A stretch of 64,000 nt of DNA, taken from positions 1 through 64,000 of the forward strand of contig CAZPQW010000008.1 in NCBI GenBank assembly GCA_964588985.1, written 5' to 3'. A program made the position numbers and the translations under genes. The notes under the pieces were generated by a model. That model saw only the letters and a list, made by a program, of their open reading frames with translations. It searched no databases and was not told the origin of the DNA. This document shows, in pieces, positions 74 through 48,556 of the stretch. This DNA comes from an uncultured Solirubrobacteraceae bacterium. GTDB taxonomy: Bacteria > Actinomycetota > Thermoleophilia > Solirubrobacterales > Solirubrobacteraceae. The first letter of the stretch is position 1; the number at the start of each line of letters is the position of its first letter.

Positions 74-199
74 GCTCTTGAAGGAGTCACGCCGCTCCGC
101 CGGGGATAGAGACAATGTGTGAAATCGATTGAACACGCATGCCCCGCTGGATACAGTCGCCCGACGATTCAGTGGATAACGAGCGGAGGCTGTTCAAAG

Positions 200-760
200 A
201 TGAGACTGGGGTTGCGAAGGATGACCGGTGGACGACTGGCGCTGGGGGCGGTGGGGCTTGCCCTCGTGCTGTCCGGCTGCGGTGGCTCGAGCGTTGGGAC
301 GTCGACTCCAGGATCCACTCCCGCTGCCACGCTGCCCACGTTCGCGCTCGCGAGCCCGGTGCTGCCCAAGACGCATGTGCTTCCGAGCCATTACGCGTGC
401 AACCCGAAGATCGGCGTGCCTCCGCTGAAATGGGCAGCGTTGCCAGCCAACACAGCCGAACTGGCCCTCGTGGTCTTCTTCATACAGAGAGGGCAACCCG
501 AACCGCAGGCGGCACTGACTGGGTTGAAGCCGACACTCCGCGAACTGAAATCCGGCGTCATCCCGCATGGTGCGGTCATAGCCGCCAACAGCAAGGTGAT
601 CTGCCCCACGGCCGGAATTGTGGCGACCTACTTCATACGCGTGTACGCGCTCAAGGCTCCGGTCAAAGTGGCGCACGGGGCCAGCGTGGGCGCCGTCGTC
701 ACGGCGATCTCACCATTGGCCACCAGCGTCGGCTCGGTTGAAGTTCACTACAAGAGATAG
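200..760 (+). CDS. Lipoprotein, distant YbhB/YbcL (PEBP)-like
   Basis: Signal peptide with lipobox LSGC; LASP..LP..Y.C, PPLKW..LP..TAELALVV and Y.IRVYAL motifs; ATG at 200 preferred over the ORF-track start at 119. Confidence 0.6.
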   Translation: MRLGLRRMTGGRLALGAVGLALVLSGCGGSSVGTSTPGSTPAATLPTFALASPVLPKTHVLPSHYACNPKIGVPPLKWAALPANTAELALVVFFIQRGQPEPQAALTGLKPTLRELKSGVIPHGAVIAANSKVICPTAGIVATYFIRVYALKAPVKVAHGASVGAVVTAISPLATSVGSVEVHYKR

Positions 761-1843
761 TCAGCGCGTGGCGAGCTCGGCCGAGGGGTAGCTGGGGTCG
801 AGCACGTCGAAGACGGGGACGCCTGGGATCGCCTCCTGGATCAGGGACCTCAGCTGTGCGGAGTCGAAGCGGTGCGAGCCGGGTGCGACCGGGTTGACGG
901 TGACGGCCGCGAGCGCGATTCGATTGAGGACCTGGATACGCACCCCCTGGCGGCGGTACCAGGCCGGCCCTCGTTTGGCGAGGAACACCCTCGTGGGGTC
1001 GGCTACGACGACGTCGATCTCGCGACCGCGTCGAGCGGTGGCCTGCAGCAGGTCGCGCAGGAAGCGGTCGGGCAGCGCCCCCGAGACGATCAACGTATTC
1101 GCGGTTGGGTGGGCGTCGAGCCGTTCGGCTATCTCGCCGGCGTCCGCGCGAAGCGCGAATCGGGGCGGCAGCTCCACCGGCTCGCCGCGATCGCCCACGA
1201 GCAGGCTCAACGTCCCGTCGCGAGCGGCGGAGAGCTCTCGCAGGGATGGGCCGCTGTCGCGGCTCTCCTCGACGCTCGGCAGGCGGACGAGGTCGACGGC
1301 ATCCCGGGTCTGTAAGACGACGTCGTCGAGGTCCTCGCCGAGAACCGCGCCGGTCGATATCACCAGTTGGTCGGCGACCGCGGGCGAGGAGGCCGCGCGG
1401 CGGTCTATGGCTCCGTCGATCAGCACCTGCTCGGCGCCGAACGCGAGCATCGCGTCACAGACGGCGCGCACGTCCTCGGCGGCGCTCGGCCCAGCCACCT
1501 CGATCGCGCCGGGACCGCGCAGGCGCGCGATCAGCACCCGCCCGAGCGGCGTCCTGATCGCGGTCTCTTCGAGGAGCTCGTGCGGCAGTGCGCTCGCCCG
1601 CAGCAGGGAGTCCGTGGTCGCCACGAGGCTGCCGCCCGGCATCTCGATACGCGGCTTCTCGATGCGGAAGTCGATCACGTCGCGCTCCTCGCCGTCGCGC
1701 CCGACTGACGTGACTCCCACGTGACGGCCGTCGGCTTCGAGCTCTCGCAGCAGCGTGCCGAGCGCGACGGTCTTGCCGGTGTTCTTCGCGAGCCCGACCA
1801 GCGCGAGCCGTCGCGCCGAGGAGGTCAGCTCGGAGAGGAGCAC
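761..1843 (-). CDS. kamB: Lysine 5,6-aminomutase reactivase subunit KamB-like
   Basis: LALVGLAKNTGKT P-loop, GVTSVGRDGE..D....EKPRI, TPLGRV, LIDGAIDRRAASSP; GTG at 1843 overlaps the kamE 3' end. Confidence 0.8.
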   Translation of the reverse strand: MLLSELTSSARRLALVGLAKNTGKTVALGTLLRELEADGRHVGVTSVGRDGEERDVIDFRIEKPRIEMPGGSLVATTDSLLRASALPHELLEETAIRTPLGRVLIARLRGPGAIEVAGPSAAEDVRAVCDAMLAFGAEQVLIDGAIDRRAASSPAVADQLVISTGAVLGEDLDDVVLQTRDAVDLVRLPSVEESRDSGPSLRELSAARDGTLSLLVGDRGEPVELPPRFALRADAGEIAERLDAHPTANTLIVSGALPDRFLRDLLQATARRGREIDVVVADPTRVFLAKRGPAWYRRQGVRIQVLNRIALAAVTVNPVAPGSHRFDSAQLRSLIQEAIPGVPVFDVLDPSYPSAELATR

Positions 1844-2610
1844 TCGGACACCCGCGCAGCTGTGCTGACGCGGTCGGCGAGCTCTCGCACGAGGAACGTC
1901 GCCAGGTGGTTGGGATAGGTGCCTTTGGAGAAGCCCGCGTCGTAGCCGAGCTCCTTGGCCAGCTCGTTCGACACGCGCGGCCCTCCGCACGCGAGGATCA
2001 TCTGCCGTCGGCGCCCCTCCGCCTCGACCATCTCCACGAGCTCGGTGAGGTTGTGCACGTGCAGGTTCTGCTGGGTGACGGTCTGGGAGACGAGGATCGC
2101 GTCGGCCCCCACTTCGATCGCCTTCGCGACGAGCACGCTGTTGGGGACCTGGCTGCCGAGGTTGTAGGTCTCGAAGCACGGGTAGCCCTCGAGGCCGTGG
2201 CGGCTGTGGTAGCCCTTGAGGTTGAGCATCGCGTCGATCCCCACGCTGTGGGTGTCCGAGCCGGTGCTCGCGCCCACGACCACGATCTTGCGCCCCACGT
2301 GCTCCTCGGCGAAGCGCTCGACCTCGTCCTCGCTCATGTACTCGATGTCGAAGCCCTCGCCCTGCAGCGCGGTGAAGTCCACCGTCTGCGCGCAGCGCCC
2401 GTACATCACGAAGTACGTGTAGCCCTCGGTGAGGGACTCGTAGTGGACGACCTCCGGCTCCTCGAAGCCCATCTTGCCCGCGAGCTCGAGCGCCGCCTTG
2501 CGCGCCGCCAGCGAGTGGGGGACGGGCAGGGTGAAGCTCATCTGCACGAGGCCGTCGCCGAGATGGTCGGCGTACGGCTTCACGGTTGTGAGATCGATGG
2601 CCTTAGGCAT
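1825..2610 (-). CDS. kamE: Lysine 5,6-aminomutase beta subunit (B12- and PLP-binding)
   Basis: VKPYAD..GDG.VQMSFTLP dimerisation domain; B12 motif DTHSVG followed by the PLP lysine in NLKGY; ADAILVSQTVTQ; GGPR. Confidence 0.93.
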   Translation of the reverse strand: MPKAIDLTTVKPYADHLGDGLVQMSFTLPVPHSLAARKAALELAGKMGFEEPEVVHYESLTEGYTYFVMYGRCAQTVDFTALQGEGFDIEYMSEDEVERFAEEHVGRKIVVVGASTGSDTHSVGIDAMLNLKGYHSRHGLEGYPCFETYNLGSQVPNSVLVAKAIEVGADAILVSQTVTQQNLHVHNLTELVEMVEAEGRRRQMILACGGPRVSNELAKELGYDAGFSKGTYPNHLATFLVRELADRVSTAARVSECSSPS

Positions 2611-4189
2611 AGCTCGCCTCGTCCGCGACCGCTGGGCGCATCAGCTCCACGACCGGGTTGAAGTAGCCGGGCTCCACGGTGACGATCCCCTCAATCCCTC
2701 GACCCTCCTCGACGCCGCGGCTGACGTCGCCGAAGGTCGCGTCCTCGATCGCCTGGAACAGGCCTGTCTCGGCGATCCGCTCGAGCAACTCGCGCGCGCC
2801 GGCGAGCACCTCGTGGGCGCGCGTCTGGATGATGCCACCGCGCTTGAACTCGATCTCATCGCCGAGGTCGTGGGCGGCGTTGAACACGTACTCCACGTTC
2901 TGCAGGCCGAGCACGCGGTCGTGGATGTGGGGAGTGAAGATCCCCTCGGTGGGCACGCCGATCGTCTGGATGCCCTGCCCGGTTGCGATCGTCACGAGGT
3001 TGAACAGGGCGTCGGTGGCGTGCGTGCGGAACAGGTTGCCGTCCATGTGTCTGGTGGGGGGCATGTACTTCACTGGGCAGTCGGGGAACAGCTCGCGAGT
3101 GAGCTGCGCCTGCGCCCACTCGTACAGCAGCCCGTTGCGCACCGGGGTGTCGATCTCGAACGCGTCGCCGAGCCCGATCTGCGCGTCGGGCACTCCGGAG
3201 TCGCGCGCGAGCTCGTGGTTGATGAACTGCGACGCGGTCACCGACGGCGCCGCCTCGATCGCGTCGGCGGTGCGCAGGTAGTTGTCCTCGCCCGTGTTGA
3301 TCACCACGCCGAAGTAACCGTTGATCATGCGCGAGACGCGCTGGTCGATCAGGCCGCGGATGATGTTGATGTCGCGGTAGAGGATCCCGTAGAGGGCGTC
3401 GTTGACCATGTTGTCGAAGCCCTCCCACGCGCCCATCGCCGCGATCTCCGACATGCACAGTCCCGAGCAGAAGCTCGACAGGCGGATGTAGCGCCCGTGC
3501 TGCTCGGACCACTCGTCCATCGCCTCGCGCATGATGCGGAAGTTCGCCTGCGTGGCGAACGTGCCGCCGTAGCCCTCCGTGGTGGGGCCGTAGGGGACGT
3601 AGTCGAGCAGGCTCTGGGCGGTCGAGCGGATCACCGCGACGATGTCCCCGCCCGCCTGCGCCACCGCCTTCGCGTGCACCACGTCCTCGTACACGTCGCC
3701 CGTCGCGGTGAGCACGTAGCGCAGGGGAGCGTGACCGTCGCCGAGGCGCTCGCGCATCTCGCGACGGGTCTCGAAGCGGGCGGCGATCTCGCGCAGGCGC
3801 GCGCCGCACTCCTCGCTCACGCGCTCGTGGATCGCGGGCTCCTCTGCCATCTCCAGCGCACACAGGTCGAGCTCCGCCGCGCTTACCGCCTCCGCGATCT
3901 GCTGTGGGCCGCGGCCGGTTTGGATCATCGCGTTGCCCAGCCAGTGCGCGATCCCCTTGCCAAGCACGCCGCGGTCCTGGACGTGATCGACGAGCACGTT
4001 CGGCAGCGGCACGTCGAGATCGTTCGCGCCGTCCACGCCGAGCAGGCGTGTGACGCTGCGCTCGACCGACAGGGTCGTGCGCCCCTCCGTCCGCTCCGCG
4101 ACCTGCTCGGCGATCCGCGTGGCCGCCTGGCGGCAGGCCGCCACCACGCCGGGGTCGAGATCGAGCTTGGGGGCGCCCACCTGGCTCAC
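2603..4189 (-). CDS. kamD: Lysine 5,6-aminomutase alpha subunit
   Basis: TTLSVERSVTRLLGVDG, VAVIRSTAQSLLDYVPYG.TTEGYGGTFATQ.NFR, NDALYGILYRDIN, INTGEDNYL, KYMPPT; GTG at 4189 overlaps the upstream TGA (GTGA). Confidence 0.93.
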   Translation of the reverse strand: MSQVGAPKLDLDPGVVAACRQAATRIAEQVAERTEGRTTLSVERSVTRLLGVDGANDLDVPLPNVLVDHVQDRGVLGKGIAHWLGNAMIQTGRGPQQIAEAVSAAELDLCALEMAEEPAIHERVSEECGARLREIAARFETRREMRERLGDGHAPLRYVLTATGDVYEDVVHAKAVAQAGGDIVAVIRSTAQSLLDYVPYGPTTEGYGGTFATQANFRIMREAMDEWSEQHGRYIRLSSFCSGLCMSEIAAMGAWEGFDNMVNDALYGILYRDINIIRGLIDQRVSRMINGYFGVVINTGEDNYLRTADAIEAAPSVTASQFINHELARDSGVPDAQIGLGDAFEIDTPVRNGLLYEWAQAQLTRELFPDCPVKYMPPTRHMDGNLFRTHATDALFNLVTIATGQGIQTIGVPTEGIFTPHIHDRVLGLQNVEYVFNAAHDLGDEIEFKRGGIIQTRAHEVLAGARELLERIAETGLFQAIEDATFGDVSRGVEEGRGIEGIVTVEPGYFNPVVELMRPAVADEASYA

Positions 4190-5835
4190 TGCAGATCTCT
4201 CACGATCGGGAACGGGATCACCTCGCGCAGCGTGTCGCGTTCGGTGAGGATCATCACGAGACGGTCCACGCCCATGCCGCCGCCGGCGGTGGGCGAGTAG
4301 CCGTACTCGATCGCGCGCGCGTATTCCTCGTCGTTGGGGTGCGGCACGTCCGCGTCGTCGATCATGCGCCGCTTGCGCTGGTCGACGAACCGCTGCCACT
4401 GGTCGACGGGGTCGTTCAGCTCGGTGTCGCCGCTCACGAGCTCGATGCCGCCGATCACCGCATCGAAGTGCTCGCCCAGCTCGGGGTGGACCGCATGGCG
4501 CTTGGTGATCGGGAACGGCTCGAGCGGGAAGTCGAACACGTGCGTCGGCTGGTTGATCGTGCTCTCGATCTGCTCCGAGTAGATGTCCGCGACGACCTCC
4601 GCCCACGTGGCGGCGGGGTCCATCGGCTCGTCCAGCACCTCGGCGAGCTGCTCGCGTGTGGACTCCATGAAGTCGAGGCCGAAGCGCTCCAGGATCAGCT
4701 CGCGCATCGTGACCCTCCGCCAGGGCTTGGCGAGGTCGATCTCCTCGCCGTTTCGTTTGATCGTCGTGCGTCCGAGCGCCTTCTGTGCGACGTCGCGGAA
4801 CATCTCTTCGGTCACGGTCGCCACGTCGTTGTAGTCGGAGTACGCGCACATGAACTCGATGATCGTGAACTCGGGGCTGTGCTTGTGCGAGATCCCCTCG
4901 TTGCGGAACACCTTGCCCATGTCGTACACGTTCTCCATGCCGCCCACGATGCAGCGGTTGAGGAACAGCTCCACGGAGATGCGCAGGTAGAGGTCGCGGT
5001 CGAGCGCGTTGTGGTGCGTCGTGAACGGTCTCGACCCGGCGCCGCCCGCGAGCGACTGCAGAGCGGGCGTTTCGATCTCCACGAAGTTCCGCTCTGCGAG
5101 CCATTCGCGGATCGCCAGGATGATCTTGTTGCGAGTGACGAACAGCTCACGCGTGCTCTCGTTGGCCATCAGGTCCAGCTCGCGGTACCGGTATCGCGTC
5201 CCCGTGTCGCCGAGCCCGTGGTGCTTGTCCGGCGGCGGGCGCAGCGTCTTGGTCAGCAGCGTGCACTCGACCGCCTCCAGGGCGAGCTGGCCGCGCTGGG
5301 TCACGTACACGCAGCCGTCGACGCTCACGATGTCTCCGATGTCGAGGTTCAGGATCCGGTCGTAGGTCTCCTGCCCCAGCGAGTCGACGCGAAGCACGAT
5401 CTGGATCGAGCCCGACAGGTCGCGCAGGTCCAGGAACGCTGTCTTGCCGTGGCCGCGACGCGAGATCAACCGACCCGCGACGAGGTAGCGCATGTCGGCG
5501 TGGCTGCCGTGCTCCAGCGCGCTCGGGTCGTGCGCCGCGAGCACGTCGGCGATGCGCGTGCGTGTCGCCCACAGGCTGACAGCCGGGTAGGGCTCGATCC
5601 CTTCGGCGCGCAGCCGCTCCATCTTCGCACGACGTTCGTCGAATTCCCCCTCCGGGGACGATGCGACCGCGCCGCCGTCCGCGCCGTCGACAACGACCGC
5701 GTCGGCAGTCGACTCGTCGCCCTGCTCCATCTCCTCCTGATCCTGTACTGGCATATCGAAGACGATCCTCTCAGCTGGGACGTGCTTGTCAAGCGGTCGC
5801 GCGGCGGTTTCCACGGACACGTTAGCGTTGGCCAT
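4186..5835 (-). CDS. lysS: Class IIb lysyl-tRNA synthetase homologue, divergent and probably a paralogue
   Basis: OB anticodon domain (RGHGKTAFLDLRD.SG.IQ), EIETP, FRNEG..H.PEFT, ELNDP, G.G.DRL.M..T....REVI.FP; several canonical residues substituted; start could instead be 5754 or 5730. Confidence 0.85.
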   Translation of the reverse strand: MANANVSVETAARPLDKHVPAERIVFDMPVQDQEEMEQGDESTADAVVVDGADGGAVASSPEGEFDERRAKMERLRAEGIEPYPAVSLWATRTRIADVLAAHDPSALEHGSHADMRYLVAGRLISRRGHGKTAFLDLRDLSGSIQIVLRVDSLGQETYDRILNLDIGDIVSVDGCVYVTQRGQLALEAVECTLLTKTLRPPPDKHHGLGDTGTRYRYRELDLMANESTRELFVTRNKIILAIREWLAERNFVEIETPALQSLAGGAGSRPFTTHHNALDRDLYLRISVELFLNRCIVGGMENVYDMGKVFRNEGISHKHSPEFTIIEFMCAYSDYNDVATVTEEMFRDVAQKALGRTTIKRNGEEIDLAKPWRRVTMRELILERFGLDFMESTREQLAEVLDEPMDPAATWAEVVADIYSEQIESTINQPTHVFDFPLEPFPITKRHAVHPELGEHFDAVIGGIELVSGDTELNDPVDQWQRFVDQRKRRMIDDADVPHPNDEEYARAIEYGYSPTAGGGMGVDRLVMILTERDTLREVIPFPIVRDLQ

Positions 5836-5896: not shown

Positions 5897-6370
5897 TCAG
5901 TTGGGCCGACCGCAGTGCTGGAAGCCGTCGTGGGTGGCGATCGCGATCAGCTGCTTCTGGAGTTCGTGGCTCTTGGCGATCGTTTCTTCGCCTAGCTTCG
6001 CGTTCTTCGCTTTCGCCTCGACGGCCAGCTGCGCGGTGTAGTTGGCCAGCTGCTGCATGCCCGACAAGAGCGTCTGCCAGTCCTTCGACAGTGAGGAGGG
6101 CGCTTTCAACGCGCTCAGATCGGCGACGACCTGATGCTCGTACGTCGCGAGACCGAGCCCGGTTTGGGCAACCTTCTGCAGCGTGTGCGCACCGCGCAGA
6201 TTCGTCACGTGCCCGAGGGCCGCGTTGGCGGCCGCGACGCGCGCGTTCATCTGCTTGCAGATCGGGTCCGCCTGCGCGATCAGCTTGGCGTTTGGGCTGC
6301 TGCCGCTGCCGCCGCCGCAGCCGGCGAACAGCGCGGCAAGGATGACGAGATACGAGAGCCTGCGTGCCAT
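5897..6370 (-). CDS. Helical lipoprotein of unknown function
   Basis: Lipobox FAGC; AQADPIC and a C-terminal GFQHC Cys pair; GGAG upstream. Confidence 0.75.
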   Translation of the reverse strand: MARRLSYLVILAALFAGCGGGSGSSPNAKLIAQADPICKQMNARVAAANAALGHVTNLRGAHTLQKVAQTGLGLATYEHQVVADLSALKAPSSLSKDWQTLLSGMQQLANYTAQLAVEAKAKNAKLGEETIAKSHELQKQLIAIATHDGFQHCGRPN

Positions 6371-6496: not shown

Positions 6497-7654
6497 TCAG
6501 GCCATCGGCAGCGACATGCCCACCGGCTTGCGGCTCTCGGCCGGCGCGGAGGGTGTCGGCGCAACCTCGACGAGGGGCAGCGTCGGCAGCTGCGGGGGCG
6601 CCATCGCGATCAGTCCTCTCGCGACCTGGCGAATCGCCTGCGAGGCAGGGTCGTCGGGGTCCTCGATCACGAGCGGCACGCCGTTGTCGGCCTGCTCGCG
6701 CAGCGGCATCGTCAGCGGCACCTTGCCGAGCAGCGGCACGTCGAGCTCGTCCGCCAGTTCTTGGCCGCCGCCCTCGCCGAAGATCGTGAAGCGCTCGCCC
6801 GCGGGTGTGGTGAAGCTGGACATGTTCTCGATCACGCCGCCGATCTCGAGTGAGACCTTGGCTGCCATCTGCGCCGAGCGGCGGGCGACTTTCTGCGCGG
6901 TCGCCTGGGGCGTCGTGACGATCATGAACTGGGCTTGCGGCAGCAGCTGCGCGAGCGTCATCGACACGTCGCCAGTGCCCGGAGGCAGGTCCACAAGGAG
7001 GTAGTCGAGGAAGCCCCAGTCGACGTCCTGCAGGAACTGCGTGAGCGCCTTGTGCAGCATCGGTCCGCGCCACACCACCGCCGCGTCCTCCTCCACGAAG
7101 AAGCCGATCGACATCACCTTCACGCCATGGGACTCGAGCGGGATGATCTTGCGCGCCGCCGACACGTCCGGGCGCGTCGCGCCGAGCCCGTACATGCGCG
7201 GGATCGAGTAGCCCCACACGTCCGCGTCGAGGATCCCCACGCGCTTGCCTTCGCCCGTGAGCGCCGCGGCGAGGTTGGCGGTCAGCGTGGACTTGCCCAC
7301 GCCGCCCTTGCCCGAGCCGATGCACAGCACGTTGGCCACCTGGGCCAGCGCGCCGGCGGGCAGGCTCGCGCGGCCGAGCTTCTGCTGCAGGGCGCTCTTC
7401 TGCTCGTCGCTGAGCACGTCGAAGTACACGTTCACGTGCGTCACGCCCTCCAGCGCGCCCACCGCGTCCGCCACGGACGTCTGGAAGTGGCCCTTGATCG
7501 GGCAGCCTGGCGTCGTCAGCGAGACGGTCACGTCGACCACCCCGTTGGGGCTCGGCTCGATCGAGCGGACCATGTCGAGCTCGACGATCGAGCGATGCAG
7601 CTCCGGGTCGATCACGACCTCGAGCGCTTTGAGAATCTCATCCTTGCCGACCAC
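6497..7654 (-). CDS. mrp: Mrp/NBP35 (ApbC) Fe-S cluster carrier ATPase with N-terminal DUF59 domain
   Basis: VIDPEL..SIVEL, LTTPGCP, GSGKGGVGKST, WRGPMLHKAL.QF, DLPPGTGD, ENMS. Confidence 0.92.
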   Translation of the reverse strand: MVGKDEILKALEVVIDPELHRSIVELDMVRSIEPSPNGVVDVTVSLTTPGCPIKGHFQTSVADAVGALEGVTHVNVYFDVLSDEQKSALQQKLGRASLPAGALAQVANVLCIGSGKGGVGKSTLTANLAAALTGEGKRVGILDADVWGYSIPRMYGLGATRPDVSAARKIIPLESHGVKVMSIGFFVEEDAAVVWRGPMLHKALTQFLQDVDWGFLDYLLVDLPPGTGDVSMTLAQLLPQAQFMIVTTPQATAQKVARRSAQMAAKVSLEIGGVIENMSSFTTPAGERFTIFGEGGGQELADELDVPLLGKVPLTMPLREQADNGVPLVIEDPDDPASQAIRQVARGLIAMAPPQLPTLPLVEVAPTPSAPAESRKPVGMSLPMA

Positions 7655-13390: not shown

Positions 13391-13852
13391 CTATGTGAAG
13401 CTCCAGCCTTGATTGCGGATGAAGCTGAGCGCATTGACGCACGGCACTCGCAGGGCCGTGCATACCGAGGGTATCTTCGGCTTGGTGTCTGTCCCGCCTT
13501 TCTCCTCGGTGACGACGGTCAGGCTTCTGACCTGGGCAGTGGCAATGACGAACGGATCTGCTCCATTGCGGTTCTTTGTCGCCTTCATAAGAAGCGGGTG
13601 CTGGGCGAGGACTTCGCTCGTTGCGCGCTGAATAGCGTCGTCAAGCGGGACGAACAAATGCGGACGCGCGTTGATCCACTTGGCGAGGTCGTCCTCTTGC
13701 CTCTCCAGCTCGACGCGCACCTCGTCGGGACAGAGCACCTCCTGCTGAGTGATGAGTTCGTCCAGCTTGATCCAAAGGCCGGGAAAGACGTCGGGCGGAT
13801 ATGAGCGCGACCAGCACTCGATGAGCACACTCGTATCGAATCAGTAGGGCAT
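13391..13852 (-). pseudogene. DUF4411 family PIN-domain protein with an in-frame TGA at codon 4
   Basis: TAATG-coupled ATG at 13852 reads M-P-Y-[TGA]-F-D-T-S-V-L-I-E-C-W; YPPDVFPGLW, ADPFVIATA, VVTEE, KIP.VC..L.V.C. Confidence 0.75.
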
Positions 13853-15063
13853 TAGTCGCGGGCGCCGCCTGTGGACGCTAGCTTGGCTTCGAGCTTAGGT
13901 AGCCCGTTGAGCTTGATCTCGAGGTACTCAGACAGGTCTGATCCTGTGATGGCGCGCCGGTAGTAGGCATCGAGCGCCGACTCGATAAACCCTCGGCCGA
14001 GATCGCGGATCATCATCCTGTAGTAGCTCGGGCCTCCCGAACGCTCGTCTTCTTGCCGCTTACGCTTCTGCTCCTCACGGAACACCTCGTAGCCTGCCCG
14101 ATATTCGGCCTCCTTTTCCTGCAGAAAGCCCCAGTCTGCGAGGCCAACGGAGTACAGGCGGCGCACGACGGCTTCCCGACTGGTGGAGTACTTCTCGGAC
14201 AGGCTGCGAATGGTGTCCTCGCTCCAGCGCATGTCGGCAGGCGGATCTTGGAGCGTCGGCTCTGCGCGGAAGGCATCAAGAGGCATCAGCACGGCAGCAG
14301 CAACTTGGTTGCAGAAGATCTCGATCTCGTCTGTTGGTCCGCGGGGCTGCTGCCGTGGTAACGCATCGCAAACTCCGTCTGCGTGAAGCAGCACGTGCGC
14401 GAACTCATGGAGCAGGGTGAAGATCCGGCCGCGTGGGAAGTCGCCGCCGTTGAGTACCACGACCGGCAGGTGAGTCATAGAGATCGAAAAACCCCGCATC
14501 TCCTTAAGGGGGATCGACTGAGCCTGCAGGACGAGAACATCGAGCCTGGATACCGCGTCAAGCCATGCGTTGAGCGCACGCCTGGGATCGCGCCATGTCG
14601 CCTGTTGTGTGAGGGTCACCCCAAGAAGTGACCGAGTAGCGGCCCCATACAGCTCAGAGTCGGTCGTCGGCTCGTCGAGCATGGGCGCGGCACCTACCGG
14701 CTCGTCAGCGAGCTCGCGCAGCTCGATAGCTGCCTCGCGCACGGCATGAGCACGGCGGATAACAGCCAGCAGCCCAGGTGACAGCTGTCCAAGTTGGGTG
14801 TCTGGCAGGCGCCGATAGTCCCTGAGTGGCTGAAAGTCGAGCGGTGGCTCGGGAAGGTAGAAGATCGCCAGTGGGCGCTTATAGACCTTCGCTGCCATCC
14901 GAAGCTGCGCGATGGTTGGGCGAGTCGAGCCTGACTCCCAGGAGCGCAGGCGGTCCTCGCTCACCCGTAGCTTGGCGGCGGCAGCGTCGAGGCCGAAGCC
15001 CGCCGACTGGCGTACCCAGCTGAGCAGTTCGGGCTTGATGAGTGCGTCAGGAGTACGTGCCAT
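13852..15063 (-). CDS. XRE HTH + ImmA/IrrE family metallopeptidase
   Basis: N-terminal HTH (LLSWVRQSAG...WESG..RPTIAQL...Y.RPL..FY); GRIFTLLHEFAH; EIFCNQVAAAVLMP. Confidence 0.9.
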   Translation of the reverse strand: MARTPDALIKPELLSWVRQSAGFGLDAAAAKLRVSEDRLRSWESGSTRPTIAQLRMAAKVYKRPLAIFYLPEPPLDFQPLRDYRRLPDTQLGQLSPGLLAVIRRAHAVREAAIELRELADEPVGAAPMLDEPTTDSELYGAATRSLLGVTLTQQATWRDPRRALNAWLDAVSRLDVLVLQAQSIPLKEMRGFSISMTHLPVVVLNGGDFPRGRIFTLLHEFAHVLLHADGVCDALPRQQPRGPTDEIEIFCNQVAAAVLMPLDAFRAEPTLQDPPADMRWSEDTIRSLSEKYSTSREAVVRRLYSVGLADWGFLQEKEAEYRAGYEVFREEQKRKRQEDERSGGPSYYRMMIRDLGRGFIESALDAYYRRAITGSDLSEYLEIKLNGLPKLEAKLASTGGARD

Positions 15064-15148
15064 CTTGATGGTCTATCAGGAGCCTACGCACGTCTCCCGA
15101 TACTTGCGCTTCGCGGCATAGCTCGCCAGCTCAAGCCTGAGGAAGGCC

Positions 15149-15310
15149 TCATGTGTGGAGGTTGGTCCATGGATCGGCCGGGACCGGTCCGGCGCTATCG
15201 CGTACTGCTTCCATGTCCTCGGCAAACCCGGGGTCGGGAGGCGCAGGGTGCTCCAGTAGCCGTGTGAGCGCCTCTTTGAGGGGCCGGCCCCGACGGCGGG
15301 AGGCGCCCAT
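15149..15310 (-). CDS. Small protein resembling the C-terminus of actinobacterial type II antitoxins; possibly a remnant
   Basis: PDPGFAEDMEAVR....P...DPW pattern; 53 aa. Confidence 0.35.
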   Translation of the reverse strand: MGASRRRGRPLKEALTRLLEHPAPPDPGFAEDMEAVRDSAGPVPADPWTNLHT

Positions 15311-15322
15311 CTTCCACGTTAG

Positions 15323-15364
15323 GTACCGCGCAGTAGGTACAAATATGTACCGGCAAAGCGGTAC
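15323..15364. promoter_or_regulatory. 4xGTAC operator-like site, copy A
   Basis: GTAC at 15323, 15337, 15347, 15361 (spacing 14/10/14). Confidence 0.55.
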
Positions 15365-15384
15365 GATCCTGTCACGGCAGGATC

Positions 15385-16587
15385 TCATCTCGGCCTGTCC
15401 GCCAGCGGCGAAGCCCGCCGCAGCCACTCTCCGAAAAGCGGGTCGACGATGTACCAGGTGCGGTCGCGCAGATCGACCAACCCTCGCCCCTGCAGCCGCA
15501 CGAGCGCCGGGCGCACGCGCGAGTGGCTGGAGAACCCGTACCGGGCGGCGATCGGTCGACTATTGACGTGCTCGCCGCCGCGGTCCGCCAACAGTTGCAG
15601 CGCGCGAATCTCGTTCACCTCGCCCTCGTCTCCGTTCATCAGCACGTTGAGCACCGAAGCGAACTCCGACCGCTCGATCGTCTGCACGAGCCGATCGTGC
15701 GCGGCTGTCGCTGTTTCGAGCGTGACTCGGTCGCCGGCGGGCGTCGCCGTCCAGCACTCCCACGCAAGCTGCTGCGTGCTGCGGGGGTGGGCATGAGTGG
15801 CGTTGAGCAGATAGCTCAGCGCATCCTCGTCTGCCGGCTTGCCCGTCTCCTCGAACTGGAAGTCGAGGTACTCGAGGAAGTCCACGCGGCCGATCACAGG
15901 CAGCTGCATCTGCGCAGCCTCGCCAAAGATCGGCTGATGGGAGTCCTCGAGCATCATCTTCAGGGCGTTGCGGATCGACCCCGTGAACAGCAACGAGACG
16001 TGGTTGGAGCCAGAGCTCATGAGCGCCGAGCGGATAATCGCCAGCGGATCGCCGGGGCAGTGGCGCAGCCGCTGGAACTCGTCGAACACCACCACTAGGT
16101 GATCCGAGAGCGAGCGCAGCGCGAGCAGCTGCGCGTGCAGAGCCTCCGCATCCTGTGCCGGATTGGCCACCGCGCTCTTCACCGAGCCCTTGATCACCCT
16201 GATGTCGAAGCCGATCTCCTTCTCCAGCGCTCCGATCTGGCGCTGCGCGGCCCGTCGCATGCTCTTCGTCGGATGGCTGGTCATCGCATCGTGCACGCAC
16301 CCGATGAACCCCGGGATGCTCACCACTCGCTGGAGGTTGACTTTCACAACGTCGAACGGCGGCGCGTCGTTGCCGTGGCTCTTCGCGAGCTCGAGAGCGA
16401 GCTGGTTCACGAACGTGGTCTTGCCCGTGTCGCGCGGTCCGAACAGCGCCACGTTCGTCTGGCCCTTCAGCGTCAGCGCAACCTTGTTCGCGAAGGCCTC
16501 CATGCCCACGATCTTCGACGGGTCGTCGAGCGGACGATCCCAGATGAAGGGGTTCAGAACGGCGGGCACTTCAGTGGATTGTACCAT
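15385..16587 (-). CDS. AAA/archaeal-type ATPase with probable C-terminal winged helix
   Basis: N-terminal NPF; Walker A GPRDTGKTT; Walker B VVVFDEFQ; LFTGS; HP..TQQLA; C-terminal Y.VDPLF.EWL. Confidence 0.85.
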   Translation of the reverse strand: MVQSTEVPAVLNPFIWDRPLDDPSKIVGMEAFANKVALTLKGQTNVALFGPRDTGKTTFVNQLALELAKSHGNDAPPFDVVKVNLQRVVSIPGFIGCVHDAMTSHPTKSMRRAAQRQIGALEKEIGFDIRVIKGSVKSAVANPAQDAEALHAQLLALRSLSDHLVVVFDEFQRLRHCPGDPLAIIRSALMSSGSNHVSLLFTGSIRNALKMMLEDSHQPIFGEAAQMQLPVIGRVDFLEYLDFQFEETGKPADEDALSYLLNATHAHPRSTQQLAWECWTATPAGDRVTLETATAAHDRLVQTIERSEFASVLNVLMNGDEGEVNEIRALQLLADRGGEHVNSRPIAARYGFSSHSRVRPALVRLQGRGLVDLRDRTWYIVDPLFGEWLRRASPLADRPR

Positions 16588-33870: not shown

Positions 33871-33909
33871 GAAACTACACTTGCGGGAAGCTGGTAGCGA
33901 GCGTACGGT
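33871..33909 (+). promoter_or_regulatory. Sigma70-type promoter with upstream GAAACT element
   Basis: GAAACTACAC-TTGCGG-N17-TACGGT; same layout occurs five times in the window. Confidence 0.7.
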
Positions 33910-33957
33910 AGACGCTACGGAGTCACGTGTAATGGCTCCTTAGGGATGTCTAGGCTG

Positions 33958-33990
33958 ATGTTTGACGCTACTCCGGGTGGGCGCTTATAA
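33958..33990 (+). other. Leader ORF MFDATPGGR[TTA]* overlapping an anti-SD sequence
   Basis: ATG TTT GAC GCT ACT CCG GGT GGG CGC TTA TAA; CTACTCC is complementary to the downstream GGAGTAG. Confidence 0.45.
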
Positions 33991-34014
33991 GTCCAATCGT
34001 AAAGGAGTAGTTAG

Positions 34015-34638
34015 ATGAGGCGTACAACAACGACGGCAGTGGGGCTGGTGGCCCTTGTGGTGATGTTGGTGCTCGGCGTGTTCTCCGCCGGGTCAGCGTC
34101 AGCGCATTTATTCTTATACACGGGACCCTTACCCTCATTACTCTTAATATTAAGCGAGGGTCCGCAGATCTTCAACGTTACACCAGAAGGCTTCCAAATC
34201 AATTGTCCGCATTTCTTAGGTCATATTCAGGTCTCTAATGGTGTGATGTGGGGCTTAACGGCCAAAGTCACCGGTGACTATCCCGGCAAATGCACCGTGA
34301 CCGGTGGCTCCAAAGGGACGATCTCCCCGGTGGAATACGAAATCAGTGCTGACGGCACGATCTCTATTCTCAAAACCATTACAATCACGGCCGGGAGTCC
34401 GGCCAACTGCAGTCTCTTAGTCGAACCGACCGCAGAAAACCAGAACCTCTCAAGCCTCTTATTCTTAAAAGATCCCCTCAACTCTGGAGCGATATTAGGG
34501 CATGCCGCAGTTGGTGGCATCCACTCGAAAGGCACCAGCGGGGTCTGTTCTGAAAAGGAAGAAAATAACTACACTAAAGGTAGCTATTTCGGCTTATTCT
34601 TAGTGTGGGTGCATGGGGGTACTGTTGCTTGGGAGTAG
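34015..34638 (+). CDS. TTA-rich secreted beta-rich protein, paralogue 1
   Basis: AAGGAG RBS; signal peptide ending ASA; 4 Cys; C-terminal GG.V.WE; 14 TTA codons. Confidence 0.9.
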   Translation: MRRTTTTAVGLVALVVMLVLGVFSAGSASAHLFLYTGPLPSLLLILSEGPQIFNVTPEGFQINCPHFLGHIQVSNGVMWGLTAKVTGDYPGKCTVTGGSKGTISPVEYEISADGTISILKTITITAGSPANCSLLVEPTAENQNLSSLLFLKDPLNSGAILGHAAVGGIHSKGTSGVCSEKEENNYTKGSYFGLFLVWVHGGTVAWE

Positions 34639-34698
34639 TTTAGATATGGCAGTTTCACGCTGTGTTACAGGAGGTTATGAAGGCTAGTTAGCTGGCTT

Positions 34699-34733
34699 GG
34701 GTGGGGGTTGGGTTTGGTGTCTGGCTCCCACCC
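34699..34733 (+). terminator. Conserved hairpin downstream of the TTA-rich gene
   Basis: GGGTGGGGGTT...GGCTCCCACCC; homologous hairpins at 45750, 54750 and 58883. Confidence 0.6.
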
Positions 34734-34816
34734 GGTTTTGTTGCGTGAGGGGAGTTGGTGTGGGTTTGTGTGGTTGTGATGGTGGTGGGGTTGGGTGTCT
34801 AGGAGGGGGTTGGGCT

Positions 34817-37483
34817 GTGGCTGGACCGGCGTTTAGGCGTGTTTGTTTGGTGGTGCTTGTTGTGGTGCTCTCTGGGTGTGTGGTGTGGGTGTCTGTGGCG
34901 GGTGCTGTGGTGTTGCCGGATGGTCGTGGCTATGAGCTGGTTTCGCCGGTGGCGAAGAATGGTTTGAGCCCGTATGCGGCGGTCCCTTCTACCACCGGTG
35001 GGGCGGTGGATTTTCAGGCGCGTGGGGCGTTTGCCGGCGCGACGTCTGGGGCTCTGAACCTGTATCAGGCGACGCGTACGGCTGGTGGCTGGCAGACAGC
35101 GCCGTTGACGCCGGCCCCGTCTACCCCGTTGGGGGCTTTGGAAGAGCAGGCGCCGGTATGGCTGTCGGCGGACTTGTCTGAGGCGATCTTCACGACCCCT
35201 GAGTCCTATGCTCCTGGCGATCAAGACGGCGGCGCGCTGAGCCTGTACGCAGAGGCTGTGGGTGGCGGGTTGAGCTGGCTATCGCAGGGATCTCAGGGAG
35301 GCACGGAATCGAGCGAGACGACGTTCGATGGAGCCTCACCAGACGGGAACCATGTCGTGTTCAGCAGCCACGCATCGCTGATCCCGCCCGCAACAGGGCT
35401 TGGGAGCGATGCAGCCCCAGAAGCGGAGTACCTCTACGAACGCAACGCTCCTGAAGCCCAAACACACCTGCTCAACGTAAACAATGCCGGGCAGATCATC
35501 GGCAGCCTCGAAACCACGCTTCCCAAAGGATACACACCAGGCCCAACGGCAAACTTTATCGCGGTCGCCCTTATCGAAGGAGAGGGCTTTTTCCCGGGGC
35601 AGTTCATCACGGTAGGCGAAGGTGAAAGCGAACTGACCACACAGATCACCCAGGTCTTCAAGATAAGCAGTACAACAGAGAGCTTGGGAGTGGGAAACAA
35701 CGCTGGATTGCCGATAGCGTATCCTGTGGGTACGCGTGTGGCGCATTTGTCGGAAGGCGCGATTTTGGGTGATGGTGGTGATTTGGCGTCGGGTGTGGCG
35801 CCTGCGAGTGAATATTTGCCGGCGGATGCTGGTAGTGGCTCCACGACCCATGCGGTGTCGAGTGATGGCTCGAAGGTGTTCTTCGAGAGCCCGAACCCCG
35901 CGGTTGGCGAGCCGGTGGGCCTATATGTGCGTATAGGTAATGCCACGACTGTAAAGATTGCTGGAGCGAGCGCTGATGGCACCAGACTCAGCGGGCTCCT
36001 CGAATCGGAGGCGGTCATATTCGGTTCGGCGCGGTTTGAGGGTGCGGCGGCGGACGGGTCGCTGGTGTTCTTCACTTCAGGTGAAGGGCTTGCTGGTGCG
36101 ACGAGTGGTGGGGAGGTGTATGAGTTCAACACGACCGGCCATGAAATCGGAGGGGTCAGCCCGTTGTCCGTCGGTGCCGTATCAGCCGGGCTGGGAGGCG
36201 ACAGAACCCCGGCAAGCACCCTCACCGCCACCGCGGCGGGGCGCAAACCGGGCGTAACCATCAGGGTCGCGAGCACGGCGGGGTTCCATGCCGGGGAAGA
36301 GATCATGTTCGCGCCGTTCGAAACAGAAGGAGAATTCGGAATGAGCTCGGGTGTGACGTCGAGGGTCGCGTCGGTGGACAGTGCGACCGAACTCACTCTC
36401 AGCGAAGGCCTGATCGGGGTAGGGTTCGGTGTTCCGGCTGGTACGGAAGTGCATGGTGTTCATCCGGCGTCTGTGGTTGCGGTCGCGGATGATGGTTCGC
36501 GTGTGTATTTCGTCTCGGATGGTGTGTTGGCGGAAAACACGAACGCTCAGGGTGCGAGCGCGGTCCCGGTGCAGCCGAACCTGTACGTGTTCGATACAGC
36601 GACCCAGGAAACCGCGTTTATCGGGACGTTGGCGTCGAGTGATGTGAGGGATGCGGGGGGTAACCCGTCGGGTTTGGTGGGCGAGCCGGATATCTCTCGG
36701 CCTGCTGTGCCGAGCCCTGACGGTGGTGTTCTGGTGTTCGCGTCTGCGGCTGATTTGACGGGCCAGAACCCGTGGCAGCAATACACCGAGATCTACCGGT
36801 ACTCGGTCGCGGGCAACTCGCTGGTGTGCGTGTCGTGCACCGCCCCGGGAGTGAAGCCCGCGGGGAACGCGTCGTTCGGGGAAACCGCCGGCGGCACTTA
36901 TGATCCGCCGGGCTTGACATCCCCGATGAGCGCAGATGGCGCTCGCGTGTTCTTCCAGACCCCAGACTCGCTTGTCGCGGAAGACACGAACGGGAGTGCT
37001 CCTGTGAGCCCGAAGTTCGGGACCCCAACCTCCACGGATGTGTATGAGTGGGAGGAAGGGCACGTGTCACTGATCTCCAGCGGCTCGGCGTCCACCCCGG
37101 CCGTTTTGATGGGCGCCACGCCCAGCGGAAACGATGCGCTGTTCACAACAACAGCGCAACTGGTACCCAGCGAGACTGACGGGGGCTATGAAAACGTGTT
37201 CGACGCACGCGTCGACGGGGGATTCCCCGCCGCAGCGAAAGCCGGCCCCTCATGCTCCGGCTCGGGGTGCACTGCAGCGTTCGGTCTCGCCCCCACGCTC
37301 CAAGCGCCCGCCAGCGCGTCACTACGCGGCCCCGGGAACACGCCCGCCAAGACAACCCCGAAACCAAAGCCAAAGCACATGGCCTGCGGGAAGCGACACG
37401 TACGACGACACGTGAAAGGCCGAACAGTATGCGCCCGACGAGCCAAGAACACCCAGAAAGCAGGCAGCACACATGCACACTAA
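34817..37483 (+). CDS. Large secreted beta-propeller (TolB/WD40-like) surface protein, copy 1
   Basis: AGGAGG RBS before GTG 34817; signal peptide; LPDGRGYELVSP; repeated S.DG..VFF; basic Cys-containing tail. Confidence 0.85.
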   Translation: MAGPAFRRVCLVVLVVVLSGCVVWVSVAGAVVLPDGRGYELVSPVAKNGLSPYAAVPSTTGGAVDFQARGAFAGATSGALNLYQATRTAGGWQTAPLTPAPSTPLGALEEQAPVWLSADLSEAIFTTPESYAPGDQDGGALSLYAEAVGGGLSWLSQGSQGGTESSETTFDGASPDGNHVVFSSHASLIPPATGLGSDAAPEAEYLYERNAPEAQTHLLNVNNAGQIIGSLETTLPKGYTPGPTANFIAVALIEGEGFFPGQFITVGEGESELTTQITQVFKISSTTESLGVGNNAGLPIAYPVGTRVAHLSEGAILGDGGDLASGVAPASEYLPADAGSGSTTHAVSSDGSKVFFESPNPAVGEPVGLYVRIGNATTVKIAGASADGTRLSGLLESEAVIFGSARFEGAAADGSLVFFTSGEGLAGATSGGEVYEFNTTGHEIGGVSPLSVGAVSAGLGGDRTPASTLTATAAGRKPGVTIRVASTAGFHAGEEIMFAPFETEGEFGMSSGVTSRVASVDSATELTLSEGLIGVGFGVPAGTEVHGVHPASVVAVADDGSRVYFVSDGVLAENTNAQGASAVPVQPNLYVFDTATQETAFIGTLASSDVRDAGGNPSGLVGEPDISRPAVPSPDGGVLVFASAADLTGQNPWQQYTEIYRYSVAGNSLVCVSCTAPGVKPAGNASFGETAGGTYDPPGLTSPMSADGARVFFQTPDSLVAEDTNGSAPVSPKFGTPTSTDVYEWEEGHVSLISSGSASTPAVLMGATPSGNDALFTTTAQLVPSETDGGYENVFDARVDGGFPAAAKAGPSCSGSGCTAAFGLAPTLQAPASASLRGPGNTPAKTTPKPKPKHMACGKRHVRRHVKGRTVCARRAKNTQKAGSTHAH

Positions 37484-37739
37484 GACGAAGGGGAAGCGAA
37501 AGCTTGGGCCGTTGATGGCGAGGCATCGAGGCGTTGTGCAGGAGGCGACCGAGGGCGCCGGGACCAGCAGTGCCGGCGACGACCTTTATTAGAGGTGGTC
37601 TCGATCGAGTCGCGTGTAGCGATCCTTGTGCTCGATGAGCCGTAGGCCTCGCAACTCGGTGAGGCGTTTGTGGTTGAGCTCGGGCTGGAGTGTCGCGTCG
37701 AACTGTGGAGAAGTCCAGCGCGCACGATCCCTGGTAGCG

Positions 37740-39838: not shown

Positions 39839-40702
39839 GTGATCGAGTCTCTGACCGGGCAGGGAATCAACGTCAGACACGCCTGCCGGGTCCTCGGCGT
39901 ATCCGAGTCCGGCTACTACGACTGGAAGGACAGGCCGCCGTCAGCGACGGCGCTCAGGCGCCTATGGCTCGCTGGCGAGATCACGGACGTGCACCGGGCC
40001 TCTGGCGGCATCTACGGCGCTGAACGCGTGACAGCCGAGCTGCGCTACGGCCGCGACATCCTCGTGAGCCACAACGCGGTATCGGACATCATGCGACGTC
40101 TCGGGCTCAAGGGCGTCCCGAATCGTCGGCTCCCGCGAGGGGCGCGGGCAGGCGCGTATCGCTCGCTTGACTTGGTTCGCCGCGACTTCTCGCGGCGTGC
40201 CCCGAACGAGCTATGGATGACCGACATCACCGAGCACCCCACGAGGGAGGGCAAGGTCTACTGCTGTGTCGTGCTCGATGCGTTCTCACGCATGGTCGTC
40301 GGCTGGGCCATCGATAGCACCCAGACGACCGCACTCGTCACGACAGCGCTCGGTATGGCGACCAGCACCCGCAACCCCGACAGCGGCCTGGTGCTGCATA
40401 GCGATCGCGGGGTTCAATTCACCTCTTGGGCCTTCAGCCGCAAGCTCCAAGACGCCGGGCTCGCACCATCGATGGGAGCCGTCGGGGCACCCGGAGACAA
40501 TGCCATGGTCGAGTCGTTCTGGGGACGCATGCAGGTCGAGCTACTCAACCGCAAACGATGGAAGACAAGGATCGAGCTCGCGACTGCGATCCACGACTAC
40601 ATCGAGACCTTCCGCAACACCACAAGACGCCACAGCGCGCTGAACATGCTCACACCAACCGAATACGAGAACCACTACCAATCAACCACCGCTACCGCCT
40701 GA
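39839..40702 (+). CDS. Element B OrfB (DDE integrase)
   Basis: WMTDITEHPTREGK, LDAFSR, HSDRGVQF, DNAMVESFW. Confidence 0.9.
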   Translation: MIESLTGQGINVRHACRVLGVSESGYYDWKDRPPSATALRRLWLAGEITDVHRASGGIYGAERVTAELRYGRDILVSHNAVSDIMRRLGLKGVPNRRLPRGARAGAYRSLDLVRRDFSRRAPNELWMTDITEHPTREGKVYCCVVLDAFSRMVVGWAIDSTQTTALVTTALGMATSTRNPDSGLVLHSDRGVQFTSWAFSRKLQDAGLAPSMGAVGAPGDNAMVESFWGRMQVELLNRKRWKTRIELATAIHDYIETFRNTTRRHSALNMLTPTEYENHYQSTTATA

Positions 40703-41108: not shown

Positions 41109-41701
41109 GCGCCTACGTGCAGGAGCACCGGGAGCGCTTCGGGGTCGAGCCGATCTGCAGCACTTTGGGCGTGTCGGCGTCCGCCTTCTACCAGCGCGCC
41201 ACCGGCCAACGATCGGCGAGGGCCGTGGAGGATGAGCGGCTGCTCGCCAGGATTCGTGAGGTGCATGAGGCGAACTACTGCGCCTATGGCTACCGCAGGA
41301 CCTGGAAGGCTCTCACGCGTGCGGGTGAGCGGGCGCCACGGTGTCGGGTGCAGCGGCTGATGCGGGCTCACGGGATCCAGGGAGCGAAGCGTCGAGGCAA
41401 GCCGTGGCGGACCACGACCCCCGATCCTGAAGCTCCCCGGCGGCCGGACTTGGTGAACCGTGATTTCACCGCCTCGGCGCCGAACGAGCTGTGGGTCGCG
41501 GACTTCAGCTATCTGCGTTGCTGGGAGGGGCTGGTGTTCTTCAGCTTCGTGATCGATGTCTACAGCCGCAAGGTCGTGGGCTGGCAGTTCGCCAGGCACA
41601 TGCGCACCACCTTGGTCCTCGACGCGCTACGGATGGCACTCTCGACAAGGCAACGGGTCGAGGAGGTCCGGCTCATTCACCACTCCGACAGGGGGTCGCA
41701 A

Positions 41702-44921: not shown

Positions 44922-44960
44922 GAAACTACACTTGCGGAGCGCTAGTAGTCAGCGTACAGT
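44922..44960 (+). promoter_or_regulatory. Sigma70-type promoter with GAAACT element
   Basis: GAAACTACAC-TTGCGG-N17-TACAGT. Confidence 0.7.
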
Positions 44961-45065
44961 AGAAGCTACGGTGTCACGTGTAATGGCTCCTTAGGGATGT
45001 CTAGGCTGATGTTTGACGCTACTCCGGGTGGGCGCTTATAAGTCCAATCGTAAAGGAGTAGTTAG

Positions 45066-45689: not shown

Positions 45690-45867
45690 TTTAGATATGG
45701 CAGTTTCACGCTGTGTTACAGGAGGTTATGAAGGCTAGTTAGCTGGCTTGGGTGGGGGTTGGGTTTGGTGTCTGGCTCCCACCCGGTTTTGTTGCGTGAG
45801 GGGAGTTGGTGTGGGTTTGTGTGGTTGTGATGGTGGTGGGGTTGGGTGTCTAGGAGGGGGTTGGGCT

Positions 45868-48534: not shown

Positions 48535-48556
48535 GACGAAGGAAACAGAGGGAGCG

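Follow-up and report, generated by a model that had tools for sequence, protein, structure and literature searches.

The window analysed here is a 64 kb stretch of Solirubrobacteraceae DNA. It carries the gene of a divergent class II lysyl-tRNA synthetase (LysRS, lysS) in one overlapping unit with kamD and kamE, which encode the B12-dependent lysine 5,6-aminomutase (5,6-LAM), and with kamB, which encodes its reactivase subunit. The unit is best explained as a conserved module of the Solirubrobacterales, an abundant soil order, and not as a stray piece of the lysine fermentation pathway. Among the best 80 kamD loci, all 24 from Solirubrobacterales have a class II LysRS gene immediately next to kamD-kamE, and none of the 56 others does. 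To our knowledge, the only described role of lysine 5,6-aminomutase is in anaerobic lysine fermentation, and class II LysRS has been regarded as having a fixed lysine pocket. An order-wide pairing of kamDE and LysRS in the core genome, with a rebuilt pocket, would provide a second physiological setting for the aminomutase. Judged from the sequences, the pairing points to a possible, so far undescribed link between lysine isomerisation and tRNA charging. No description of the lysS-kamDE linkage was found in the accessible parts of the published literature.

Gene order and linkage of the lysS-kam module

Genes were called with the curated cut-offs of NCBIfam and with Pfam. The unit and its immediate neighbours are:

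4186-5835, minus strand: lysS, divergent class II lysyl-tRNA synthetase, 549 aa (TIGR00499, NF001756, PF01336 + PF00152)
2603-4189, minus strand: kamD, lysine 5,6-aminomutase alpha subunit (TIM barrel, pyridoxal phosphate (PLP) site), 528 aa (NF052384, PF09043)
1825-2610, minus strand: kamE, lysine 5,6-aminomutase beta subunit, 261 aa (NF052385, PF16554 + PF02310)
761-1843, minus strand: kamB, 5,6-aminomutase reactivase subunit, 360 aa (NF052386; no Pfam family)
6497-7654, minus strand: mrp/apbC Fe-S carrier gene upstream of lysS; synteny context, not claimed as part of the module
5897-6370, minus strand: open reading frame (ORF) of 157 aa and no family, upstream of lysS; synteny context, not claimed as part of the module
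119-760, plus strand: convergent ORF bounding the unit, putative lipoprotein, weakly PEBP-like (PF01161 at E 3e-4, which misses the cut-off)

The start and stop coordinates bear out the overlaps that an earlier note on this DNA had described. Within the GTGA at 4186-4189, the lysS stop TGA (4188-4186) overlaps the kamD start GTG (4189-4187). The kamD stop TAA (2605-2603) overlaps the kamE start ATG (2610-2608), and the kamE stop (1827-1825) falls within kamB, an overlap of 19 nt; the kamB start, GTG at 1843, is a call made in the present analysis. The kamB stop (763-761) abuts position 760, the end of the convergent ORF, which is also where the note had placed the end of the unit; this ORF is not conserved beside the module and has a single weak match among the relatives, in locus L018. 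The neighbour that the note called a synthetase is a class II lysine--tRNA ligase according to TIGR00499 (474 bits, cut-off 427.6) and NF001756 (538 bits, cut-off 468). The window has a G+C content of 68% and possesses core genes such as ileS, trxA, pstSCAB, polX, pilB and mrp (NCBIfam). Its whole length contains no match to any Rfam family at gathering thresholds, hence no L-box, T-box or B12 riboswitch, and no tRNA gene (tRNA scan).

Relatives were collected from 185,579 species genomes scanned with a KamD alignment, and the best 80 of at least 600 stretches were kept. They comprise 24 loci of Solirubrobacterales, one of Micromonospora, one of Thermoleophilaceae and 54 others (Bacillota, Bacteroidota, Thermotogota, Promethearchaeota and further groups). 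Twenty of the Solirubrobacterales loci possess the gene order of the window, mrp-(small ORF)-lysS-kamD-kamE-kamB (type A). The other four (type B; L018, L021-L023) possess kamD-kamE-lysS, with no kamB within 10 kb. Locus L015 combines a type A module with a convergent second complete module, kamD-kamE-kamB-lysS, each with its own LysRS. The two complete modules stand tail to tail in one genome (L015:8544-18437). The synthetase linkage is thus conserved in all 24 loci through rearrangement and duplication, in three gene orders (lysS-kamD-kamE-kamB, kamD-kamE-lysS and kamD-kamE-kamB-lysS). A lack of conserved linkage in relatives was part of what the earlier note had named as refuting its reading, and this lack is not observed.

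All-against-all clustering of the genes of the 24 loci finds only LysRS, KamD and KamE in every locus. Other genes that recur around the module have housekeeping functions (mrp, DUF2342, ferredoxin, citrate synthase, GroEL), with Mrp upstream of lysS in 18/24 loci, and type B modules adjoin lysA, dapD, dapC, dapE and a divergent argS-like gene. LysRS of types A and B are about 60% identical; we infer that both often occur together in one genome, since two database LysRS of type B lie on contigs of 1,315,311 and 304,572 bases, the same lengths as contigs that carry a type A KamD. The main A and B groups separate alike in the KamD and LysRS trees. The exception is L018: its LysRS and gene order are of type B, whereas its KamD is placed, with weak support (SH-aLRT 83), among those of type A. 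A tRNA scan detects no tRNA gene by the module in the 24 lysS-linked loci. The tRNA genes present among L001-L026 are a distant tRNA-Ala in L024 and a tRNA-Arg just upstream of kamD in L026, a locus without lysS.

Actinobacterial kamDEB loci without lysS have other partners, in L025 a non-ribosomal peptide synthetase (NRPS)/P450 cluster and in L026 a class I/II aminotransferase. In L025 (Micromonospora sp. NPDC005710, L025:10001-18601), kamD-kamE-kamB is located inside a cluster of NRPS, cytochrome P450 and FkbM-methyltransferase genes, an arrangement suggestive of a non-ribosomal peptide that contains a diaminohexanoate unit. The Thermoleophilaceae locus (L026:8199-14578) has the order ArgRS-like gene, tRNA-Arg(TCT), kamDEB and GntC/VioD-like PLP aminotransferase. 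A divergent ArgRS-like gene also adjoins kamD in L021 (8289-9722), L015 (18782-20185), L022 and L023. All that Pfam detects in these ArgRS-like genes is the class I R catalytic domain (37-45 bits), and they come nowhere near the argS cut-off.

In P0352, a protein of 758 aa from a metagenome contig of 45.8 kb, KamE is connected in frame, via a Pro/Glu-rich linker, to a type B LysRS; the protein is the one member of one cluster. In L021, kamE and lysS are in different frames, so that a one-base indel could produce a fusion of this type. P0352 is weak evidence of physical coupling, because it is a single sequence and such an indel could create it. Among proteins of at least 962 aa no LysRS-KamD fusion is found, the top matches being LysX at about 41% identity; the search tool rates this negative as weak evidence. 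The parts fused to KamD in its long representatives are KamB, GNAT or KamE; LysRS is never among them. Examples are P0125, a GNAT acetyltransferase-KamD fusion of 727 aa, P0124, a partial KamB-KamD fusion, and P0127, a KamD-KamE fusion.

The lysS genes of L001, L014, L015 and L017 have split reading frames, and in the type A copy of L015 the frames of lysS, kamE and kamB are all split. Assembly indels are a more likely cause than gene decay, because all four loci are from one series of metagenome-assembled genomes (MAGs) and their LysRS branches are short.

KamDE and KamB apart from fermentation genes

In anaerobic lysine fermentation, kamDE normally acts together with kamA, kamC, kdd, kce and kal. 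The earlier note had reported none of these in the window, and this is correct: NCBIfam detects none among the 50 window ORFs, and reference KamA, KamC, Kdd, Kce and Kal proteins, taken from loci L027, L030, L037 and L046, have no tblastn match in the window at E<=1e-6. The kam genes lie outside a fermentation context in the relatives as well. No actinobacterial kamD locus (0/26) has kamA, kdd, kamC, kce or kal within about 10 kb, and the kamA-kdd-kce-kal set is encoded with kamDE neither in the window nor in any of these 26 loci. In contrast, at least one of the five genes is present in 44 of the 54 non-actinobacterial loci (kamA 38, kdd 37, kamC 38, kce 24, kal 19). Of the ten non-actinobacterial loci with none, five extend less than 3 kb upstream, and for a sixth (L042) the upstream flank is about 4.5 kb. 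L027, L030, L037 and L046 have the classical cluster, in which kdd-kamA-kamB-(kamC)-kamD-kamE is accompanied by kce, kal and CoA-transferase genes. KamC has no match in the window or in L001-L026, so that the reactivase pair of KamB and KamC is not complete there. MAG contigs of Promethearchaeota (L041, L046, L072, L074) possess kce-kdd-kamA-kamB-kamD-kamE without the KamC ATPase; KamB without KamC is therefore not peculiar to the actinobacterial clade.

KamD matches NF052384 with 780 bits (cut-off 600) and PF09043 with 730 bits over model positions 1-508 of 508, and it aligns end to end with the solved 5,6-LAM 8t0v (E 4e-185). KamE matches NF052385 with 354 bits (cut-off 280), contains the OAM_dimer (PF16554) and B12-binding (PF02310) domains, and aligns end to end with solved 5,6-LAM beta subunits (E 6e-92). 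In this alignment both motifs that had been called intact are so: the B12 His-on motif DTHSVG occupies KamE residues 119-124 (2256-2239), and K132, the PLP lysine of NLKGY (2217-2215), is aligned to the lysine of NMKGY in 9q1a/8t0v. KamB matches NF052386 with 305 bits (cut-off 210) and has the P-loop GLAKNTGKT at 1795-1769. Of the PLP-binding residues given for C. sticklandii 5,6-LAM in the accessible part of PMC3958899, KamD keeps R184, S189, S238, Y263, R268 and N299, while G187 is Ala and Y236 is Phe.

The closest KamD proteins are 84-94% identical, and the named ones are from Solirubrobacterales or Solirubrobacteraceae MAGs. In a KamD tree of 82 sequences (maximum likelihood, LG+G4, quick search), the lysS-linked KamD form one clade (26/26, SH-aLRT 96), sister to L025 + L026, and a branch of 0.52 splits the actinobacterial clade from all 54 others. 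Thirty-nine KamD positions are fixed differently between the actinobacterial and the fermentation groups; changes near the PLP/substrate site are Y236F, T302R, H338D, T379D and H414F (C. sticklandii numbering). The substrate residues Y160, S162 and Y187 of ornithine aminomutase map cleanly onto KamD. The site of Y236F is the equivalent, by alignment, of Tyr160, which hydrogen-bonds the substrate carboxylate in ornithine aminomutase according to the available text of PMC3958899. For the residue that the review calls His225, the ornithine aminomutase alignment shows a His numbered 222 in the chain, and no claim is based on it.

The suggestion of the earlier note that KamDE acts directly on alpha-lysine is plausible. 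Free alpha-lysine, not beta-lysine, is the likeliest substrate, because no kamA is nearby, 5,6-LAM is reported in the accessible sections of PMC12429584 to turn over L-lysine in vitro, besides D-lysine and beta-lysine, and KamD of this separate clade differs near the substrate site. A B12-dependent ribonucleotide reductase is listed for all Thermoleophilia in Table 1 of PMC6544083, one part of that paper, so that the class uses cobalamin elsewhere.

The lysine pocket of the kam-linked LysRS

LysRS of the window consists of a variable acidic N-terminal region of about 60 aa, an OB-fold anticodon-binding domain (PF01336) and a class II core (PF00152). Numbered by alignment to E. coli LysU (1e1o), its pocket has M329 (4851-4849), S468 (4434-4432) and D470 (4428-4426) in the positions of E. 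coli Y280, N424 and F426. This signature (Met280, Ser424, Asp426) is present in 26/26 kam-linked LysRS of both types and in all 120 listed database relatives of a type B LysRS query. Canonical bacterial LysRS possess Tyr280, Phe/Tyr426 and Asn/Thr424 in 12 of 12 sequences, which stem from E. coli and plasmid collections and include five Actinomycetota (four Actinomycetes and one member of the Coriobacteriia, Collinsella). LysX-type proteins show the canonical Y280 and F/Y426 state in 118 of 120 cases. The aromatic pair Y280 + F/Y426, which characterises housekeeping LysS, is absent from the kam-linked LysRS.

The residues for catalysis and for the alpha-group, equivalent to E. coli G216, E240, R262, E264, H270, E278, E428 and R480, are kept in all 26 kam-linked LysRS. 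Among 104 near-invariant canonical positions, 78 are retained and 26 changed. In the LysRS tree, a stem of 1.15 substitutions per site leads to a single clade of the kam-linked LysRS. Public annotation files them as ordinary LysRS, and a search for look-alikes in the ESM Atlas returns only generic LysRS clusters. We take Y280 and F426 to line the lysine side chain, as in LysU structures. Mutation of these two residues alters thialysine discrimination in E. coli LysRS, according to the accessible text of PMC12546413, which cites Ataide 2007.

Both exceptions among the 120 long LysX-type proteins (P0484, P0510) are Dojkabacteria-type LysRS fused to B3_4 and HD domains. Their pocket of Met280, Asp424 and Trp426 is a second departure from the canonical Tyr/Asn/Phe. 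Since this similar pocket exists, Met + Asp does not require a new substrate and can belong to a working LysRS; a pocket of Met with an Asp close by may hold the lysine epsilon-amine in a second functional manner. A LysRS-like gene on a plasmid of Streptomyces sp. NBC_00045 (L093:5860-7506), annotated as "amino acid--tRNA ligase-related protein", has Gln424/Cys426. Its neighbours encode sugar enzymes, a PIG-L deacetylase and a fatty-acid CoA ligase, and it has the appearance of an aminoacyl-tRNA synthetase (aaRS) paralogue in a small-molecule cluster.

Explanations, known parallels and other features of the window

Three findings speak for a functional tie between lysine 5,6-isomerisation and LysRS: rearrangement and duplication have not broken the linkage, no partner of kamDE but LysRS is constant, and the pocket signature is invariant. 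We tentatively favour, with less than even confidence, a co-inherited lysS-kam module in which KamDE acts on alpha-lysine and a still lysine-specific LysRS is tuned against the 5-amino isomer. KamDE, with its KamB reactivase subunit, is predicted to interconvert alpha-lysine and 2,5-diaminohexanoate (5-methylornithine). The divergent LysRS would still be the lysine-tRNA ligase of the cell, and one lysine pool would be divided between translation and the 5-amino isomer. Work on ornithine editing suggests that a canonical LysRS would mis-activate a methylornithine of this kind. With the rebuilt pocket, LysRS could distinguish lysine from the isomer that an enzyme translated from the same mRNA produces. 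If the pairing serves discrimination, nature would here provide a test case of an aaRS faced with an isomer of the amino acid that it charges.

Several points weigh against this preference. The linkage counts are from one order and represent few independent events (two paralogous module types, a tandem pair and a fusion), and the best 80 of at least 600 stretches do not cover all species. KamA, the fermentation genes and a canonical or class I LysRS could be encoded outside the 64 kb of the window. No gene of the module explains the fate of 2,5-diaminohexanoate in the cell, the KamE-LysRS fusion fits a product hand-over better than mere discrimination, and the lysine-binding role of the pocket residues is partly an assumption from LysU structures. 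The proposal of the earlier note that KamDE is biosynthetic and supplies the substrate of the synthetase agrees with the non-fermentation context and the conserved linkage. Its second half, substrate supply, does not follow, since the pocket fits use of the isomer and rejection of the isomer equally.

Use of the isomer is the core of a bolder alternative that we consider unlikely: LysRS would load 2,5-diaminohexanoate on tRNA, or KamDE would isomerise a lysyl group held by LysRS or tRNA, and a further LysRS, encoded at another place of the genome, would provide canonical Lys-tRNA. In its favour, the cluster has no conserved "next enzyme" but LysRS, translation of the genes is coupled, both modules of the duplicated pair retain a LysRS of their own, and KamE and LysRS are joined in frame in P0352. 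The anticodon-binding domain is kept, the LysRS stem is long (1.15), and a gained Asp with the loss of the Tyr hydroxyl would suit a C5 amine and a terminal methyl. KamDE furthermore tolerates different alpha-ends (D-Lys, L-Lys, beta-Lys), as far as the available text of PMC12429584 reports. However, such charging requires a further, so far hypothetical LysRS, and neither the window nor any of the 24 lysS-linked loci has a tRNA gene next to the cluster. The combination of Met280 and Asp also occurs in a LysRS lineage with no known kam link, P0352 is a single metagenome protein possibly created by a one-base indel, and proteins of at least 962 aa include no LysRS-KamD fusion. That a B12 radical enzyme of the Solirubrobacterales makes 2,5-diaminohexanoate and a pocket-remodelled LysRS places it on tRNA, or that lysyl is isomerised on LysRS/tRNA, is decidedly improbable when taken as one statement. 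If charging took place, it would provide a new non-canonical aminoacyl-tRNA by a pyrrolysine-like route, to be used in translation or in a pathway of the cell envelope or of small molecules that depends on tRNA.

It is also rather doubtful that the genes share regulation alone and the two enzymes have no biochemical coupling, with a housekeeping LysRS that carries a lineage-specific pocket variant and kamDEB as a catabolic or overflow enzyme sharing its operon. Amino-acid genes do sit with aaRS genes, as argS-lysA in Corynebacterium. LysRS passes the curated LysRS cut-offs with all catalytic residues kept, the type A module is located in a conserved housekeeping region, the type B module beside lysA, dapD, dapC, dapE and the argS-like gene is in a general lysine-gene neighbourhood, and all linkage data are from one order. 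A lack of coupling is nevertheless difficult to reconcile with a linkage that survives three gene orders, module duplication and fusion, or with lysS, kamD and kamE as the only constants of all 24 loci. Met and Asp are found in 146/146 kam-linked or related LysRS, whereas 12/12 canonical and 118/120 LysX-type sequences are aromatic, and the sister kamDEB loci without lysS have other partners (NRPS in L025, aminotransferase in L026). An ordinary but dispersed beta-lysine pathway, in which KamDE would act on beta-lysine as in fermenters and kamA, kdd, kce and kal would be encoded at other places of the genome, is highly improbable. The equivalog models that KamD, KamE and KamB match are also those of the fermenter proteins, and the gene search covered the 64-kb window of the genome. 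The five genes are nevertheless missing within about 10 kb from every actinobacterial locus and occur in 44/54 others, and the KamD clade is separate with substrate-site changes. Cultured Solirubrobacterales are aerobic soil bacteria.

The enzyme is the same two-subunit 5,6-LAM as KamDE of the fermenter Clostridium/Acetoanaerobium sticklandii (PDB 1XRS, 8T0V, 9Q1A), with DxHxxG, the PLP lysine and PLP-site residues, and KamB is present in the window. It differs in the absence of kamA, kdd, kamC, kce and kal, in its separate long-branch clade, in its constant position beside LysRS and in its aerobic host order. The EpmA/EpmB (PoxA/YjeK) system combines a LysRS paralogue with a lysine 2,3-aminomutase and beta-lysylates EF-P. 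Both systems pair a lysine aminomutase with a class II LysRS-type enzyme, and EpmA uses the isomer. EpmA lacks an anticodon-binding domain, whereas LysRS of the window has the OB-fold; on the EpmA model TIGR00462 it reaches 169 bits, below the cut-off of 286.9, so that it is not assigned to EpmA/PoxA. EpmB is of the radical-SAM 2,3 type, whereas the mutase of the window is of the B12-dependent 5,6 type. In the pyrrolysine system, the lysine mutase PylB yields 3-methylornithine and a dedicated class II synthetase, PylRS, is present. The likeness is a radical lysine mutase yielding a methylornithine (in the window a predicted product) encoded with a class II aaRS; the window differs by having no PylC or PylD, no dedicated tRNA gene found nearby, a LysRS in place of PylRS and no evidence of recoding.

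Self-resistance copies of aaRS are found beside antimetabolite genes (the IleRS of mupirocin producers), and aaRS genes occur in amino-acid operons (argS-lysA). Similarly, the aaRS gene of the window overlaps genes for an enzyme acting on its own amino acid, and its pocket changes are at positions of analogue discrimination in the accessible text of PMC12546413. Unlike these cases, the pairing is order-wide, part of the core genome, duplicated as a unit and once found fused. The transamidosome, SepRS/SepCysS and SelA are systems of tRNA-dependent amino-acid conversion. They likewise couple an aaRS, by genetic or physical association, to an amino-acid-remodelling enzyme, often a PLP-dependent one; the coupling in the window is seen as gene linkage, and tRNA binding by KamDE would be hypothetical.

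Beyond the module, the window contains a direct duplication of 3.6 kb with 99.5% identity (33894-37493 and 44945-48544) and a third partial copy near 54118. The repeat has a lower G+C content of about 57% and contains two ORFs, of 207 aa and 928 aa, which fit no clear family. Its copies flank transposase genes of the IS3 and IS30 families (39839-40702, 41556-43142), and large fibronectin-III/PhoD-like repeat proteins are encoded downstream. At 13852-16569, a gene with HTH and IrrE/M78 peptidase-like parts adjoins an AAA ATPase gene; with a lower G+C content of 64%, this region is possibly a mobile or defence islet.

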